A DNA stretch of 50,306 nt from NCBI GenBank assembly GCA_041389865.1, contig JAWKRA010000004.1, positions 1 to 50,306 of the forward strand, read 5' to 3'. This document shows, piece after piece, positions 23,840 through 30,292 of the stretch. How positions within the stretch are numbered: the stretch's first letter is position 1; the number at the start of each line of letters is the position of its first letter. The translations under genes were made by a program, and so were the position numbers. The notes below the pieces were generated by a model, which was not told the origin of the DNA, ran no database searches, and saw nothing but the letters and a program-made list of their open reading frames with translations. Source of the stretch: Nannocystaceae bacterium (lineage in GTDB: Bacteria; Myxococcota_A; Polyangia; Nannocystales; Nannocystaceae).

Positions 23840-25264
23840 ATGCGCAGCGAGCTGAAGCCATCGGCCGCTGACGGCGACTCTTGTGGGCGGATCGTCGAGC
23901 TCCGCGGCCCGGTCGTGGATGTTTACTTCGGTGACGGGCTCCCCGCGATCCACGAGCTACTCATCGTCACGCATGGTGAGCGCGAGGTCCCCCTAGAGGT
24001 TCACGCGGAGCTTGATCGCTCCCACGTTCGCGCGATCGCCCTCGCGGACACCGCGGGCCTCCGGCGGGGTGAGCTCGTCACCCGCACGCGCGAGACCCTT
24101 ATGGTACCGACCGGAGACGCCGTCCTCGGCCGCGTCCTCGATGTGCGCGGCGAGCCGCTTGACGGAGGTCCGTCGATCGAGGCGATGGGCCGACAGGCCA
24201 TCCACCGGTCGCCCCCGCCCATCGCGGCGCGGTCACACATGCACGGGGCGTTTCGCACGGGGATCAAGCTCTTCGACTTCCTCACGCCGTTGCCACGCGG
24301 CGGTCGTACGGGGATGTTCGGCGGCGCGGGCGTCGGCAAGACGGTGCTTATCATGGAGCTGGTGCACAACGTGATCAGCCAGTCCGCGGGCGTGTGCGTG
24401 TTCGCCGGCGTCGGCGAGCGATCGCGAGAGGGCCTCGAGCTGTGGGAAGACATGCGCGCGTCGGGTGTCCTGGAGCGATCTGTGCTCGTGTTCGGCCAGA
24501 TGAATGAGGCGCCAGGTGCACGCATGCGCGTCGCTTTGAGCGCGTTGACCATGGCGGAAGCCTTTCGTGATGAGCAGGGTCGCGATGTCATCTTTCTCGT
24601 AGACAACATATTTCGATTCGTGCAAGCCGGCGCGGAGGTCAGCGCATTACTCGGCCGACTGCCTTCACGCGTCGGCTATCAACCCACGCTTGCGACCGAG
24701 GTAGCCGGACTGCAAGAGCGGATTTGTTCGACGGAGAGCGGGTCGATCTCATCTGTTCAGGCCATCTACGTTCCTGCTGATGATCTCACGGATCCCGCGG
24801 TGACGGCGACCGCCACCCATCTGGACACGTCCGTCGTCCTCTCCCGCCAGATGGCAGCCAAGGGCCTGTATCCGGCGGTTGATCCGCTCGCCAGCAGCTC
24901 GCGTCTCTTGTCCCCTGAAATCGTCGGCGACCGCCACTACCGACTCGCTATGCAAAGCCGCGAGCTCCTCGCGCGAGCGAAGGATCTTGAGGATATCGTG
25001 GCTATGCTCGGGATGGACGAACTCAGCCCCCGCGACCGGACCGCAGTGGAGCGCGCGCGTCGGCTGACGCGATACCTGACCCAGCCGTTCTTCGTCAGTG
25101 AGCCGTTCACCGGCCGACCGGGAGCGTACGTGACGCTCGAAACCGTCCTCGACGACGTCGAGTCGATCCTGTCCGGGCGAACCGACGAGGTGGACGAAGC
25201 CGAGCTGTATATGATCGGCTCCCTCGCCGACGCTGGGCTCGTGCGAACGGGGGCGCACACGTGA
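23840..25264 (+). CDS. atpD: F-type ATPase beta subunit (N-ATPase operon)
   Basis: Walker [13 protein letters not shown]-like and catalytic regions ([31 protein letters not shown]). The start may be further upstream. Confidence 0.8.
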
Positions 25265-25668
25265 ACGATCGAGCCACGCTGCAGTTGACGGTGCAGACAC
25301 CCACGGGGTTGGTCGTCGACGAGCGCGTCACCGGCGTCACGGCAGAGGACGCCACCGGCCGATTCGGCGTACGCCCGCGCGCTGAGCCGCTCGTAGCGGC
25401 CCTCGTCGCCGGCATTCTCACGGCCCGATCCATCGACGGCGGCGAGCGCCTCGTCGCCGTCGGACCCGGAATTCTCTTCACCTACGACGATCGAGTCGAG
25501 GTCGCGGTGCGCCACGCGGTGGTGTGTGACTCGCTCGAACACGTGCAACAATGCCTTGAGAACGCCTCACAGACGCAGACTGCGCGGGAGAAAGATCTCC
25601 GTTTGACCTTTCGCGATCTCATGCGAAAACTAGCGGTCACCATGGTCCGAGGAGAGCGGGACGCGTGA
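25261..25668 (+). CDS. atpC: F-type ATPase epsilon subunit
   Basis: Beta-sandwich N-terminal region ([33 protein letters not shown]) plus helical C-terminus. Translationally coupled to atpD. Confidence 0.7.
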
Positions 25669-25934
25669 AACCCGAGATGCGGCGACGAGTGTCTCGTCGG
25701 GCGCAGAGAATGGACGCGGAGCGTAAGCGTGCGGGTGGATTCTGGCGTGGCCTCGGCTTTGTGGGTGCGATCGGCTGGATGCTCATCTTGCCGATGGCGG
25801 CCGGCGGATTCGCAGGACACACCGCCGACATGCACGTGGGGAGCGGCGTGACGTTCGCGCTGGCTGGACTCTTGCTCGGTTTGTGCATCGGCGCCTACAC
25901 TGTGTGGCGATTTGTAGTTCGGAGCGTGCTATGA
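25665..25934 (+). CDS. N-ATPase accessory membrane protein (AtpQ/AtpI-like)
   Basis: Basic N-terminus then two TM helices (GLGFVGAIGWMLILPMAAGGFAG, VTFALAGLLLGLCIGAYTVW). Confidence 0.5.
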   Translation: MKPEMRRRVSRRAQRMDAERKRAGGFWRGLGFVGAIGWMLILPMAAGGFAGHTADMHVGSGVTFALAGLLLGLCIGAYTVWRFVVRSVL

Positions 25935-27867: not shown

Positions 27868-29369
27868 GCTCCGAGCCGACCGGGGGGCGTCTTCCGACGT
27901 TCGCGGCTCGACTCGACGTCGCCGCCCGCGGCTTTCGCTTCGCACCCGAGATCCGCAGGCAAGGCCGCGTGCTCGCAGTCGGCGACGGGGTGGCCCTCGT
28001 CAGTGGGATGCCTGATGTCGCGTTGTCGGAGATCGTGCTGGTCGCCGGCTGGCTCCCAGGCGTAGTGCTGGATCTTCGCGAGTCGACGGTCGGCGTCGCC
28101 CTGCTCGAGTCGCCTACGACTTCACTGGTCGGCGCGCCGGTCACTGGGAGCGGTGAGGTGATCTCCTGCTTCGTCGGCGACGAGCTCCTCGGACGAATGG
28201 TCGACGGACTCGGACGCCCTCTGGACGGCGGCAAGCCCTGGTCGAGCGCCGAGCGCTGGCCCGTCGAGCGAGCGGCGCCAGCATTGGTGGAGCGCGCGGC
28301 TGTGCGAGAGCCGCTGCTCACCGGCGTTATGGTCGTCGACGCGTTATTCCCGATCGGGCGAGGGCAACGTGAGCTCATCGTGGGCGATCGCGGGACCGGA
28401 AAGTCAACCCTTGCGATTGACGCTGTGATCAATCAGCGCGACACGGGCGTACGGTGCGTGATCGTCTCGATCGGGCAGCAGTCGTCGTCGGTCGTCCAGC
28501 TGATCGAGCGGCTGGCGAAGCACGACGCGCTCGGGCACACGGTGGTCGTAGTAGCTCCGGCCGCGAGCGCGCCTGGTCTACGATTCATCGCACCGTACGC
28601 TGGATGCACGATCGGGGAGTTCTTCCGCGATCGCGGTGAGGACGCGCTCGTCGTTTTCGATGACCTGACTCAGCACGCGATCGCGTACCGCGAACTGTCG
28701 CTGCTCCTGCAGCGTCCGCCTGGACGAGAGGCGTACCCCGGAGACATCTTCTTCATCCACTCGCGCCTCCTCGAACGAGCTACGCGACTCAGCGACGCGC
28801 GCGGCGGAGGATCATTGACGATGTTGCCGATCGCGGAGACCCACGCAGGCCGCATCAGCGACTTTATCCCTACGAACTTGATCTCTATTACCGACGGTCA
28901 GCTCTACCTCGAGCCGACGCTCTTCGATCGCGGGATCAAACCGGCCGTTGATGTGGGCCTCAGCGTGTCGCGGGTGGGCGGGCGAACACAGCGCCCAAGT
29001 ATGAAAGCCGTCGCTGGTAGGCTGCGGCTCGACGCGGCGCGGTTTCGGGAGGTCGAGGTATTCAGTCGATTCGGGGGCCGCGTCGAAGCTTCGACACAGA
29101 AGCTCTTGACGCGCGGAGAACGCGCGCGAGAGCTGCTCAGACAAGGCCCGGGCGATGCGAGGTCACCGGCCGAACAGGTCGCATTGCTCGTCGCGCTCCA
29201 AGAGGGCAGGTTCGATGAAGTCGAGGTTCCGGACGTGCCTGCGGTCGTCGCTCGCTTGCGTGCTCGCCTGCGATCGTGTGATCCGGTTCTCCTGACAAAC
29301 CTCGATCATGGGCCTCCACCGACCGCGTCAGAGCGATCAGCGATTGTCGCGCTCTTCGAGGACACGTGA
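27864..29369 (+). CDS. atpA: F-type ATPase alpha subunit
   Basis: Walker A GDRGTGKST, downstream conserved regions, characteristic alpha C-terminal domain. Confidence 0.85.
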   Translation: MSSEPTGGRLPTFAARLDVAARGFRFAPEIRRQGRVLAVGDGVALVSGMPDVALSEIVLVAGWLPGVVLDLRESTVGVALLESPTTSLVGAPVTGSGEVISCFVGDELLGRMVDGLGRPLDGGKPWSSAERWPVERAAPALVERAAVREPLLTGVMVVDALFPIGRGQRELIVGDRGTGKSTLAIDAVINQRDTGVRCVIVSIGQQSSSVVQLIERLAKHDALGHTVVVVAPAASAPGLRFIAPYAGCTIGEFFRDRGEDALVVFDDLTQHAIAYRELSLLLQRPPGREAYPGDIFFIHSRLLERATRLSDARGGGSLTMLPIAETHAGRISDFIPTNLISITDGQLYLEPTLFDRGIKPAVDVGLSVSRVGGRTQRPSMKAVAGRLRLDAARFREVEVFSRFGGRVEASTQKLLTRGERARELLRQGPGDARSPAEQVALLVALQEGRFDEVEVPDVPAVVARLRARLRSCDPVLLTNLDHGPPPTASERSAIVALFEDT

Positions 29370-30292
29370 TGGAACAGGCCGCGCTGGAGCGAAAGCTGGG
29401 TAACGCCAAGGCGCTGCGTGACATCATGGTGACCATGCGCTCGCTCTCGGCAGCTCAGCTGCGCCGTGGCCAGGCCGCGCTCGAGGCGATTCGGCAGTAC
29501 GAAGAGACGATCTGCCGCGGTCTACTGCGATCGCGCTATGAGCCGCCTTCGCGCACGACACCGGATCGCGTACTGATCATCGTCCTCGGAAGCGATCAGG
29601 GTATGTGCGGCGGACTGACGCAACGCCTCGTAGATCGCGCCATACTCCGTATCGAGAGACACTCCGCCGTGACCCGTATCCTGGCTGTCGCCGGGCGACG
29701 TGCTCAAGCGTATCTCGAGGCGAGAGGACAGAGGGTCGACTATCGATACGAAAGCGCTGTCTCTGTCCGCGGTGTAGACGCGGTCGTCGAAGCGTTGGCC
29801 GAGCATATCGAGAAGGAGCTGCCAGGTGGTCCCTGCTGTCGCGTAGAGGTCGTATACACCCGTCAATCCGGCGAGTATGGAGGTTCGGCCAGCGCGCTGT
29901 GCATCTACCCCCCGCAGCCGAGAATCCCTGACGGCGCGGTGCTTCCTCGCTTCGATCCCCAGAGCTACGAGCTGCTCGCGGACGTGTTGGCCGCATCGCT
30001 GCCGGAGTGGAGCTACGCCGCACTGTATCGCTGCGCGCTCGAGTCGTTAGCCGCCGAGCACGAGGCGAGGATGCGGACGACGGACGCAGGCGTCCATACG
30101 CTCGATCGCCGCCTCGACGAGCTCCGCCTCAGCCTTAATCACTTGCGGCAGGAGTCCATCACCAATGAAATCCAGGAGTTGGTCGCAGGCGCCGGGAAAT
30201 CAATACTCAGCCGCCAGCGGGATCCTCGTACCGACGCTCAAATAATGAGGCTTCGGCATCCGCGCGAATCATCAGAACCCCGTGAGTCTTGA
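29366..30292 (+). CDS. atpG: F-type ATPase gamma subunit
   Basis: N-terminal coiled coil (LRDIMVTMRSLSAAQLRRGQAALEAIRQYEETI) and C-terminal helix (ESITNEIQELVAGA). Confidence 0.7.
   Translation: MMEQAALERKLGNAKALRDIMVTMRSLSAAQLRRGQAALEAIRQYEETICRGLLRSRYEPPSRTTPDRVLIIVLGSDQGMCGGLTQRLVDRAILRIERHSAVTRILAVAGRRAQAYLEARGQRVDYRYESAVSVRGVDAVVEALAEHIEKELPGGPCCRVEVVYTRQSGEYGGSASALCIYPPQPRIPDGAVLPRFDPQSYELLADVLAASLPEWSYAALYRCALESLAAEHEARMRTTDAGVHTLDRRLDELRLSLNHLRQESITNEIQELVAGAGKSILSRQRDPRTDAQIMRLRHPRESSEPRES

Follow-up and report, generated by a model that had tools for sequence, protein, structure and literature searches.

Gene content and coding integrity of the operon

Nine intact genes lie on the forward strand at positions 23840-30292 of the window (the whole 50,306-nucleotide stretch that was analysed), in the order beta, epsilon, AtpQ, AtpR-like, a, c, b, alpha and gamma. 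Pfam and NCBIfam models identified eight of the nine open reading frames, the exception being the fourth.

23840..25264, + strand: atpD, beta subunit, 474 aa; start matches an identical 474-aa NCBI protein (P0002)
25261..25668, + strand: atpC, epsilon subunit, 135 aa; PF02823, E = 8.6e-16
25665..25934, + strand: atpQ, 89 aa, 2 TM segments; PF09527 (ATPase_gene1), 36 bits vs cut-off 26.6
25931..26203, + strand: AtpR-like small membrane protein, 90 aa; remote homology
26193..26891, + strand: atpB, a subunit, 232 aa; Pfam/NCBIfam and functional residues
26888..27151, + strand: atpE, c subunit, 87 aa; Pfam/NCBIfam and ion-site ligands
27148..27867, + strand: atpF, long b subunit, 239 aa; PF00430 plus PF00213 (OSCP)
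27864..29369, + strand: atpA, alpha subunit, 501 aa; Pfam/NCBIfam and functional residues
29366..30292, + strand: atpG, gamma subunit, 308 aa from GTG or 307 aa from ATG at 29369; PF00231, E = 6.6e-40

The first-pass annotation of this DNA had read a complete atpD-C-Q-R-B-E-F-A-G operon here, and these coordinates bear it out, with R recognised remotely. The genes overlap by 4-11 bp at all eight junctions, and are therefore probably translationally coupled. A search for promoter-like and terminator-like signals at the operon gave none above chance.

All residues checked for catalysis, stator function and ion binding were conserved. Beta carries the P-loop GGAGVGKT, catalytic Glu193/Arg194 and Walker B Asp255, with DELSPRD in place of DELSEED; alpha carries the P-loop GDRGTGKS and the arginine finger Arg370; and the a subunit has the stator Arg163 (equivalent to E. 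coli R210), Asn167, Glu172 and Gln201. The gene order is that of the canonical N-ATPase (atpDCQRBEFAG; Dibrova, Galperin & Mulkidjanian 2010, PMC2881411; catalogued in ProAD 2025, PMC11738941), whose loci contain intergenic gaps whereas all genes overlap here. It differs from that of the housekeeping F1Fo ATP synthases of E. coli (atpIBEFHAGDC) and C. bescii, although the core subunits are homologous and the catalytic and stator residues are conserved in both. Beta and alpha share 52% and 45% identity with their E. coli counterparts, gamma and a 24% and 26%.

The operon is held within a lower-GC block of ~9.5 kb (23.8-33.1 kb), and GC3 of the atp genes is 0.68-0.79 vs 0.84-0.93 in the flanks. 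Each edge of the block is marked by one copy of an imperfect direct repeat, and three further genes lie inside it.

23695..23772, + strand: ~77-nt imperfect direct repeat, left copy, intergenic, 68-145 nt upstream of atpD
30667-30915, + strand: DUF2933 protein with a His-rich tail
30912-31571, + strand: ICMT-family methyltransferase
31681-33045, + strand: beta-CASP metallo-beta-lactamase
33191..33269, + strand: ~77-nt imperfect direct repeat, right copy

The repeat copies are identical at 54/77 positions with one gap. Their local alignment score of 30 compares with a mean of 11.8 (sd 1.6, maximum 20) over 500 shuffles, and the best non-self match of the left-repeat region in the whole window is the right copy. 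Rather than an insertion scar, the repeat could represent a regulatory element common to both sites. The three genes at 30667..33045 are probably co-acquired neighbours and not ATPase subunits.

As the annotation had stated, the operon sits between two metal-resistance modules. Upstream are ATC_hydrolase, AAA_28 and SAM methyltransferase genes, preceded by a CusCBA-like RND system; downstream are an outer-membrane efflux protein, two multicopper oxidases and a P1B ATPase. Relatives of the operon occur in unrelated genomic contexts. Together with the low GC3, the low-GC block and the flanking repeat, this indicates that the operon was probably acquired laterally, arriving with a 9.5-kb block that entered a copper/heavy-metal resistance island. 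Canonical N-ATPases likewise show signs of lateral transfer.

The delta-like b subunit and the AtpR-like protein

A missing delta subunit and a delta-like C-terminus on b were both claimed from the first reading. With the delta proteins of E. coli and C. bescii as tblastn queries, and a delta HMM against all window ORFs, we detected no delta gene in the operon or in the rest of the 50-kb window, which also covers the possibility, raised at the outset, of one lying just outside the operon boundaries. The sole delta-like match was the b C-terminus (27733-27861, E = 1.5e-5), where tblastn aligned E. coli delta residues 132-174 at 45% identity. Two profile methods agreed: b residues 202-233 match PF00213 (OSCP) at 25.2 bits vs a cut-off of 22.3, and hhalign placed the b family on delta residues 108-175 (probability 71%). 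From its N-terminus, the b subunit has a TM helix, then a coiled coil, and ends in a domain resembling delta (residues ~176-238, strongest over the DNA segment above). Canonical N-ATPases also lack a delta gene and have a long b bearing a delta-like C-terminus. Compared with the housekeeping enzyme, the operon has neither atpH nor atpI, and its b is 239 aa vs 156 aa.

Two small accessory membrane proteins had also been proposed. AtpQ was upheld by PF09527, and an R-like protein does occupy the AtpR place, but Pfam and NCBIfam searches with this fourth ORF gave no direct match, neither PF12966 nor TIGR03165 recognising it; canonical AtpR, in contrast, is detected by PF12966. The R-like protein has about three hydrophobic segments and carries Arg25, Arg49 and Arg77, and in canonical N-ATPases a small three-TM, Arg-bearing protein likewise follows AtpQ at the AtpR site. 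The ORF is unannotated in the GenBank record; on metagenome contig L001 a gene is called at this position, which is absent from the NCBI record. It is kept at the equivalent operon position in loci L009, L090 and L091, and four more homologues were found as proteins alone (P0122-P0125). The top match of its relatives is PF12966, full-length and sub-threshold, and in an hhalign comparison with canonical AtpR (P = 1.4e-4) 81 columns aligned without a gap and the arginines fell in register. Profile-profile comparison and a gradient of intermediate sequences thus tie the 90-aa ORF to AtpR, of which it would be a counterpart recognisable only by remote homology.

The c subunit and its predicted Na+ site

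The ESTxxY set noted earlier in helix 2 of c is present, in the string VESTAIYAL, and the helix-1 ligand, left open then as Gln or Glu, is Glu, in GPSRGEGE. The complete ion site comprises Glu30 (helix 1), the backbone ligand Met61, and Glu63, Ser64, Thr65 and Tyr68 (helix 2). The window c aligns end to end with that of Fusobacterium nucleatum (E = 1.5e-17), whose Na+ F-ATP synthase c11 ring (PDB 3ZK1; Schulz et al. 2013, PMC3692424) has identical Na+-coordinating side chains (Glu32, Glu65, Ser66, Thr67, Tyr70); the window c lacks none of the side chains by which the c-rings of F. nucleatum and I. tartaricus coordinate Na+. The crystal structure shows this set of the F. nucleatum enzyme with Na+ bound, and it drives synthesis coupled to Na+ there (PMC3692424). 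The two proteins differ at the backbone ligand (Val63 in F. nucleatum, Met in the window), in a Ser replacing one Gly of the helix-1 GxGxG packing motif, and in Arg28 and Glu32, which flank the helix-1 site of the window c. Moreover, the F. nucleatum enzyme is a housekeeping F-type synthase with delta and a normal operon order, neither of which applies here.

Canonical N-ATPase c subunits likewise combine Glu in both helices with ESTxxY, but the helix-1 Arg lies one helical turn earlier in the window c (GPxRGEG vs GEGR). Under the ProAD rule a complete motif denotes Na+ (PMC11738941). Ion binding has been tested biochemically in a single N-ATPase c-ring, that of Burkholderia pseudomallei (c17 ring; Schulz et al. 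2017, PMC5376962), for which Na+ binding was predicted in 2010 and which proved H+-selective in vitro. This enzyme shares the operon layout, the two-carboxylate ion site, an accessory role and a place in an accessory part of the genome. Its c subunit, however, reads Glu61-Thr62-Met63...Tyr66 and lacks the Ser and Thr Na+ ligands of the window's Glu63-Ser64-Thr65...Tyr68. Since the H+-selective ring has ETM..Y and not EST..Y, the precedent weakens the case for Na+ and does no more than that; Na+ coupling of the window enzyme is a well-founded prediction.

Relationships, competing readings and probable function

We compared the subunits with 'alternate F1F0' and F-type NCBIfam models. The alternate models scored higher for epsilon (alt_F1F0_F1_eps 81 bits vs TIGR01216 40 bits), a (209 vs 116), c (115 vs 58), b (76 vs 43) and alpha (576 vs 551), and the two sets tied for beta and gamma. 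The window subunits fall under the curated cut-offs of all seven alternate models. The best 80 genomic relatives of gamma all lie within beta-first (N-type) operons, and the complete operons among them read beta-epsilon-Q-(R)-a-c-b-alpha-gamma. At 59-71% beta identity, the relatives L090, L091, L093 and L096 share the gene set and an R-like ORF that lacks annotation; in L096 atpD is inverted. The window subunits match those of the other 78 N-type loci at 50-55% identity for beta, 47-54% for alpha and 25-31% for gamma.

In the beta tree the window clade had 97-98% bootstrap support, and its union with canonical N-ATPases 42-50%. The window beta grouped with the F-type clade alone in 0/200 replicates, and with that clade plus an intermediate group in 3%. 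F-type betas are compact (mean F-F distance 0.36 vs 0.71 from the window clade to F), and the window clade is about as distant from canonical N as canonical N is from F. Alpha distances from the window were 0.78 to N-type and 0.92-0.99 to F-type, while the alpha tree rooted on beta left the branching unresolved. Of the expected placement within the N-ATPase clade, the position outside F-type betas thus held, but the link to canonical N did not gain firm backing from either tree. The subunits form their own deep clade outside housekeeping F-ATPases, weakly joined to canonical N-ATPases. The proposal that the layout is that of an N-ATPase is supported, with these qualifications, by gene order, absence of delta, AtpQ, the b-delta fusion and the two-Glu c subunit.

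We favour, at a probability of roughly 0.7, an intact N-type rotary ATPase (N1No) that pumps Na+, an accessory relative of F1Fo belonging to a divergent sub-lineage. The same kind of enzyme could instead be an ATP-driven H+ pump, as proposed for B. pseudomallei, whose ring is H+-selective despite its two-glutamate site (PMC5376962); ProAD predicts H+ coupling for about half of 1807 N-ATPases (PMC11738941), and Na+-binding c-rings also take H+ where Na+ is scarce (PMC2881411). We consider this unlikely, given that B. pseudomallei has Thr and Met at the Ser66 and Thr67 positions, while the window c has the full Glu30/Glu63-Ser64-Thr65/Tyr68 set that in F. nucleatum accompanies Na+ binding and Na+-coupled synthesis. 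Use chiefly for ATP synthesis and not for pumping, with the enzyme as a second synthase powered by Na+-motive force, would suit the intact catalytic residues and the reversibility, in principle, of rotary F-type enzymes, and the Aphanothece halophytica N-type enzyme was published, as cited in PMC5376962, as a 'Na+-dependent F1F0-ATP synthase'. It seems rather improbable: according to Dibrova et al. N-ATPases do not substitute for ATP synthases, deletion of the M. acetivorans operon left growth and ATP synthesis unaffected (PMC2881411), and the window holds no primary Na+-pumping system (Nqr, Rnf, decarboxylase) to build a sodium-motive force.

The NCBI protein names, plain 'F0F1 ATP synthase subunit ...', imply the organism's housekeeping enzyme with a rearranged operon. 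Beta does reach 600.9 bits on F-type TIGR01039, past that model's cut-off, against a marginally lower 598.6 on the alternate model, and one genus (T78) has an N-ATPase as its only rotary ATPase according to ProAD (PMC11738941). The beta-first order with AtpQ, an AtpR-like gene and delta fused to b instead of encoded separately, the bootstrap separation from F-type betas, GC3 well under that of the flanking genes, and a site in a metal-resistance island and not a core-gene neighbourhood make this reading very hard to sustain. Scores under the curated N-ATPase cut-offs, the degenerate DELSEED and the chance-level promoter and terminator signals might suggest a transferred operon in decay that no longer functions. 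We give that reading almost no credence: the nine frames are intact with coupled start/stop overlaps, the checked functional residues are all retained, 14 contigs from several metagenomes carry the identical c sequence, and a clade of about 20 clusters retains the operon's organisation unchanged.

Judged from its sequence, the enzyme is thus most likely an ATP-driven sodium pump. ATP hydrolysis in alpha3beta3 would turn gamma/epsilon and the c-ring. Na+ would enter each c subunit through the cytoplasmic half-channel of subunit a, be held between Glu63/Ser64 of one c and a protonated Glu30 of its neighbour, and be freed to the periplasm on passing a-Arg163. A b(-delta) dimer would form the stator. 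AtpQ and the AtpR-like protein may act in assembly or regulation; following the proposal of Dibrova et al., the arginines of AtpR might form pairs with both glutamates of c.

The kind of enzyme is already known, and the window copy, from a metagenome-derived myxobacterial genome, represents an unusually divergent branch of it, a sub-lineage seen chiefly in genomes of uncultured, Nannocystales-like Myxococcota. Its physiological role there may be Na+ extrusion or ion homeostasis beside a putative housekeeping ATP synthase.

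The ATPase operon and its fourth gene

The nine-gene N-type ATPase operon proposed by the first-pass annotation at 23840-30292 on the forward strand was confirmed by reading frames and by Pfam and NCBIfam scans, the fourth frame giving no direct profile match. All nine reading frames are intact.

Genes of the operon, in order
beta, forward strand, 474 aa, PF00006/PF02874 (Pfam, NCBIfam)
epsilon, forward strand, 135 aa, PF02823
AtpQ, forward strand, 89 aa, PF09527 (36 bits, cut-off 26.6), between epsilon and a
25931-26203, forward strand, AtpR-like fourth frame, 90 aa, hydrophobic
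a, forward strand, 232 aa, PF00119
26888-27151, forward strand, c, 87 aa, PF00137
b, forward strand, 239 aa, PF00430 plus a C-terminal OSCP/delta match
alpha, forward strand, 501 aa, Pfam/NCBIfam
gamma, forward strand, 308 aa, PF00231

The order beta-epsilon-X-X-a-c-(b-delta)-alpha-gamma, held in one cluster, is identical in every complete locus among the best 80 relatives. Neighboring genes overlap by 4-11 bp at all eight junctions and are therefore probably translationally coupled. A GTG start for beta at 23672, which would add a long upstream extension, was rejected because the identical 474-aa NCBI protein begins at 23840. Residues expected of a working enzyme are retained: GGAGVGKT, Glu193/Arg194 and Asp255 in beta, the P-loop and Arg370 in alpha, and Arg163 (E. 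coli R210), Asn167, Glu172 and Gln201 in subunit a. An E-value scan of 20400-31200 gave no relevant Rfam match, whether to a riboswitch (e.g., Na+/Li+) or to another RNA element, and scans for sigma-70 promoters and intrinsic terminators gave no signal above shuffled sequences.

In the matching NCBI record (JAGQIN010000088.1; GCA_020431275.1) the subunits are named plainly 'F0F1 ATP synthase' and the fourth frame is uncalled, so that 260 bp between atpQ and atpB (L092, 12095-12354) stand empty where the AtpR-like gene should be. The N-type nature of the operon was thus missed by automated annotation.

Two small accessory membrane proteins had been proposed between epsilon and a. The first is AtpQ by direct profile match. 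For the second, AtpR, position, size and about three hydrophobic segments fit, but PF12966 (AtpR) and TIGR03165 gave no match even at E = 10 in direct Pfam/NCBIfam scans. AtpR belongs to the definition of N-ATPases as a 'tell-tale' gene, encoding three transmembrane segments and conserved membrane Arg residues (Dibrova 2010; ProAD 2025). A word-indexed homology search with the fourth frame returned nothing beyond the protein itself. Homologues were found at the same operon position in the two closest related loci, L009 and L010 (37% identity), and in the more distant loci L090 and L091, and exhaustive HMMER searching across 1.84 billion representative sequences added four more, recognized by protein sequence alone (38-66% identity). 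Because it recurs in the same slot of related operons and has these HMMER homologues, we consider the protein to be real.

Canonical proteins from the same slot in other N-type loci scored 77-90 bits against PF12966. Sub-threshold scores were obtained for the R-like proteins of loci L093 (24.4 bits) and L096 (19.6) and, in the window's own family, for homologue P0124 (13.5) and the L090 protein (11.3); all four alignments were full-length, and AtpR was the only or top family for each. When a profile of eight window-family members was compared with one of 32 AtpR proteins, canonical and intermediate, 81 columns aligned without gaps and with three conserved Arg in register (hhalign score 27.1, P = 1.4e-4, 52% probability). 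The real alignment exceeded all of 100 column shuffles (mean 10.8, sd 2.6, maximum 19.3), and control profiles of AtpQ and subunit c reached 13.7 and 10.1 in the same comparison. Since direct scans gave no AtpR match, the identity of the fourth frame rests on profile-profile evidence, and we read it as a putative, highly diverged AtpR to which the PF12966/TIGR03165 family models themselves give no match.

The stator and the ion-binding site

The absence of a delta (atpH) gene was upheld, also beyond the operon boundaries. Neither tblastn with the E. coli and Caldicellulosiruptor delta subunits nor a delta HMM run against all frames of at least 60 aa revealed such a gene in the 50-kb window, and profile scans of the window found no OSCP-only frame. 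The sole delta match in the window is formed by the C-terminal ~45 residues of b (27733-27861), which share 45% identity with residues 132-174 of E. coli delta (E = 1.5e-5). This agreed with the predicted delta-like C-terminus of b, as did the OSCP match on b (25.2 bits, cut-off 22.3). With a profile built from 69 N-type b subunits, the 63 C-terminal columns of b (window residues 176-238) aligned with delta residues 108-175, that is, with its C-terminal domain (hhalign, 71% probability). These matches indicate that the stalk is a b-delta(CTD) fusion, an arrangement described for N-ATPases by Dibrova et al. (PMC2881411); no counterpart of the delta N-terminal domain was found in the window operon.

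Over its full length, subunit c aligns with two Na+-binding c subunits of known structure, 3ZK1 from F. nucleatum (E = 1.5e-17) and 1YCE from I. tartaricus. Alignment to these structures bore out the proposed ESTxxY ligand set in helix 2. Each of the two helices carries a Glu at its middle (Glu30 and Glu63), so the helix-1 ligand, which had been singled out for inspection, is Glu. The ligand positions are Glu30, Met61, Glu63, Ser64, Thr65 and Tyr68, corresponding to Glu32, Met63, Glu65, Ser66, Thr67 and Tyr70 in I. tartaricus numbering. The crystallized F. nucleatum ring binds Na+ through Glu32, Glu65 and Ser66, through the residue-63 backbone and through a water molecule that Thr67 keeps in place, with Tyr70 stabilizing Glu65 (PMC3692424). 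The Na+ c-ring motif (Mulkidjanian 2008, as used in ProAD) comprises Gln/Glu32, Glu65, Ser66, Thr67 and Tyr70 plus the residue-63 backbone carbonyl. As the window subunit matches all the F. nucleatum ligand positions, its Na+ ligand set is complete, and the ProAD rule (PMC11738941) would predict a Na+-specific c-ring. The N-ATPase ring of B. pseudomallei is H+-selective (PMC5376962); its c subunit has Thr-Met where the window subunit has Ser-Thr. This precedent makes the predicted Na+ coupling less certain but leaves it standing.

Most canonical N-type c subunits read GPxLGEGR in helix 1, whereas those of the clade holding the window operon (the window clade) read GPSRGEG(Q/E). A comparison of c genes across the window and loci L009-L096 shows that the Arg by the ion-site Glu has moved one helical turn in this clade, leaving its helix face unchanged. 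Glu at the vacated position was observed in the window only, the other members of the clade having Gln.

Relation to N- and F-type enzymes

A genome scan with gamma returned N-type gene order in 80/80 of the best loci. Two of these are close to the window operon: L009, from a Nannocystales MAG, and L010, identical to it in sequence, with 77% identity in beta, 70% in alpha, 79% in c and 56% in gamma. At the other loci among the best 80, identity fell to 50-55% in beta and 25-31% in gamma. For epsilon, a, c, b and alpha, the NCBIfam 'alternate F1F0' models scored higher than their F-type counterparts; for beta and gamma the two tied. None of the seven curated 'alternate F1F0' cut-offs (TIGR03305, 03166, 03306, 03322, 03321, 03324, 03323) was reached (beta, 598.6 against 752 bits; alpha, 576.5 against 750.5; gamma, 101.5 against 282; b, 76.5 against 225; c, 115 against 131). 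Such scores place the window proteins in the N-type architectural class only, outside the narrow NCBIfam 'alternate F1F0' families.

A neighbor-joining tree built from 175 betas, with alpha as the root and 200 bootstrap replicates, resolved a window clade of 22 members (97-98% support), a separate clade of canonical N-type betas (98-99%) and a compact third clade of F-type betas (72%; members on average 0.36 apart). The union of all N-order betas received 42-50% support. Window and F-type betas grouped on their own in 0/200 replicates, and in 3% with the intermediate group included. Mean beta distances are 0.71 between window clade and F-type, 0.70 between window clade and N-type, and 0.72 between N- and F-type. 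A beta-rooted alpha tree was set aside: it formed a ladder with near-zero supports and the F-type sequences nested inside, and was judged a rooting and long-branch artefact. Alpha distances were used in its place (0.78 to N-type; 0.92-0.99 to E. coli and C. bescii). The proposed separation from housekeeping F-ATPases thus held in the beta tree and in the alpha distances, but a joint clade with the canonical N-ATPases is tentative at 42-50% support. All members of the window clade and the intermediate group retain the N-type gene set. Judged from these sequences, the operon would be a deep sister or separate lineage, outside nested membership of the canonical N clade; ProAD also reports N-type clusters beyond the main clade (PMC11738941). 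In locus L096 (3609-11431) atpD has the opposite orientation and diverges from the other operon genes, and L090 (11392-12063) has a single 223-aa frame that joins epsilon to AtpQ (PF02823 + PF09527).

Genomic setting and meaning of the operon

Domain annotation agreed with the earlier description of the surroundings, both for the ATC-hydrolase-like gene, AAA_28 ATPase and SAM methyltransferase upstream and for the position between two metal-resistance modules, a CusCBA-like RND system before the operon and multicopper oxidases with a P1B ATPase after it.

Features around the operon
11597-12229, ECF sigma factor, full, upstream
12816-20467, reverse strand, CusCBA-like RND system, its membrane-fusion protein with HMBD and DUF3347 domains
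upstream of the operon, forward strand, membrane frame, then ATC_hydrolase-like gene (21344-21997), AAA_28 ATPase and SAM methyltransferase
after gamma, DUF2933, ICMT-family methyltransferase and beta-CASP metallo-beta-lactamase
further downstream, saccharopine-dehydrogenase-like gene
within 34467-46415, outer-membrane efflux protein (the second outer-membrane factor), two multicopper oxidases, P1B ATPase (YHS + HMBD), fn3, cytochrome c, DUF4198 and sigma-70-family gene (region 4 match)

The regions 12816-20467 and 34467-46415 constitute an extensive copper/heavy-metal island. The atp genes have a GC3 of 0.68-0.79, against 0.84-0.93 in flanking genes, and the lower-GC stretch runs from ~23.8 to 33.1 kb, taking in the DUF2933, ICMT and beta-CASP genes. 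An imperfect direct repeat of ~77 nt (23695-23772 and 33191-33269) exactly brackets this 9.5-kb block. Its copies match at 54/77 positions (70%; score 30, where 500 shuffles reached at most 20) and form the best non-self match in the window. An insertion scar and a shared upstream element are both possible readings of the repeat; a structured RNA was rejected on a consensus fold of only -11.5 kcal/mol. No counterpart was found upstream of atpD in related loci, and no tRNA gene lies near the block, the sole one in the window being at 802-876. At 30667-31571, the DUF2933 protein has a His-rich C-terminal tail (HGSHRGRGHSDGDRGH) and its gene overlaps by 4 bp that of the ICMT-family membrane methyltransferase; the two look like a metal-related gene pair.

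Related operons occupy unrelated genomic contexts, consistent with mobility; that of L009, the closest relative, is set among glycogen and PLP-enzyme genes. An ATC_hydrolase-like gene was also observed directly 3' of gamma in L009 (10905-11774; L010, 7383-7919; 32% identity, E = 8e-15), and was not found beside more distant N-ATPase operons. Five canonical operons (L014, L028, L038, L053, L076) contain a ~400-aa frame between atpQ and atpB. The three scanned (L014, 5095-6303; L028, 5000-6229; L038, 3787-5043) encode a Na+/H+ exchanger (PF00999, E = 1e-42 to 1e-52), which fits a role in ion homeostasis. MbnB/TglH/ChrH-HvfC pairs belong to RiPP metallophore-type clusters, so the pair at 6147-8147 in L090, 2 kb upstream of the related operon there (71% beta identity), marks another metal-related neighborhood.

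At the level of sequence, these analyses demonstrate a complete, intact N-type gene set in which the catalytic, stator and ion-binding residues are conserved, all Na+ ligands are present and b is fused to part of delta. We put the probability that the operon has N-type architecture at about 0.9; the fuller statement, that it encodes a laterally acquired, Na+-extruding pump, is likely, if less secure. By extension from F- and N-type enzymes, ATP hydrolysis by alpha3beta3 would rotate gamma/epsilon and the c-ring, and Na+ would be carried past Arg163 of subunit a, from the half-channel on the cytoplasmic side to the one on the periplasmic side. AtpQ and AtpR would help assembly, and the enzyme would supplement a housekeeping synthase; no second atp operon lies within the window.

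A bolder reading would see in the operon a third deep branch of the F-like rotary ATPases, N-type in layout and carried on a mobile 9.5-kb metal-gene cassette, its pumping tied to metal stress. It would be as distant from canonical N-type enzymes as these are from F-type, with AtpR remodelled and the Arg relocated by the c-ring ion site. The cassette (DUF2933/ICMT/beta-CASP) would have entered a copper-resistance island, where pumping might keep the membrane energized for RND efflux under poisoned respiration. We regard this third-lineage reading as improbable. With the window's flanking proteins as tblastn queries, strong matches to metal-efflux genes or other window neighbors occurred beside N-ATPase operons in 2-3 of 80 loci, which by a rough estimate is close to chance, and a general linkage of N-ATPases with metal efflux was rejected on this ground. 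The matches were a Cus-like RND system in an Anaerolineales locus (L047, 9557-17751; RND pump 52% identical), a P1B ATPase in Planctomycetaceae (L069, 11106-13340; 56%) and a beta-CASP MBL in Planctomycetales (L033, 2700-4067; 50%). The N-ATPase interpretation as a whole is supported, qualified by a divergent sub-lineage, NCBIfam scores below cut-off and an AtpR recognized by remote homology.

N-ATPases are already known, 1807 being catalogued in ProAD (PMC11738941); what is new here is a complete operon of a divergent sub-lineage. They have scarcely been studied at the bench, one Na+-dependent enzyme and one H+-selective c-ring having been characterized, and neither a search of PDB sequences with subunit c nor the literature searched yielded a structure of a whole complex. 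Given the plain F0F1 naming and the unannotated atpR, such operons can pass for housekeeping synthases in metabolic reconstructions from MAGs. By itself the operon opens no new question, and its value, for annotation and as a comparator in N-ATPase biochemistry, is modest, lying mainly in its being a clean, complete example of a divergent branch overlooked by curated models. Comparison with this branch would help to establish what in AtpR and the c-ring is indispensable, what determines the ion preference of two-carboxylate sites, and how such operons move between genomes.
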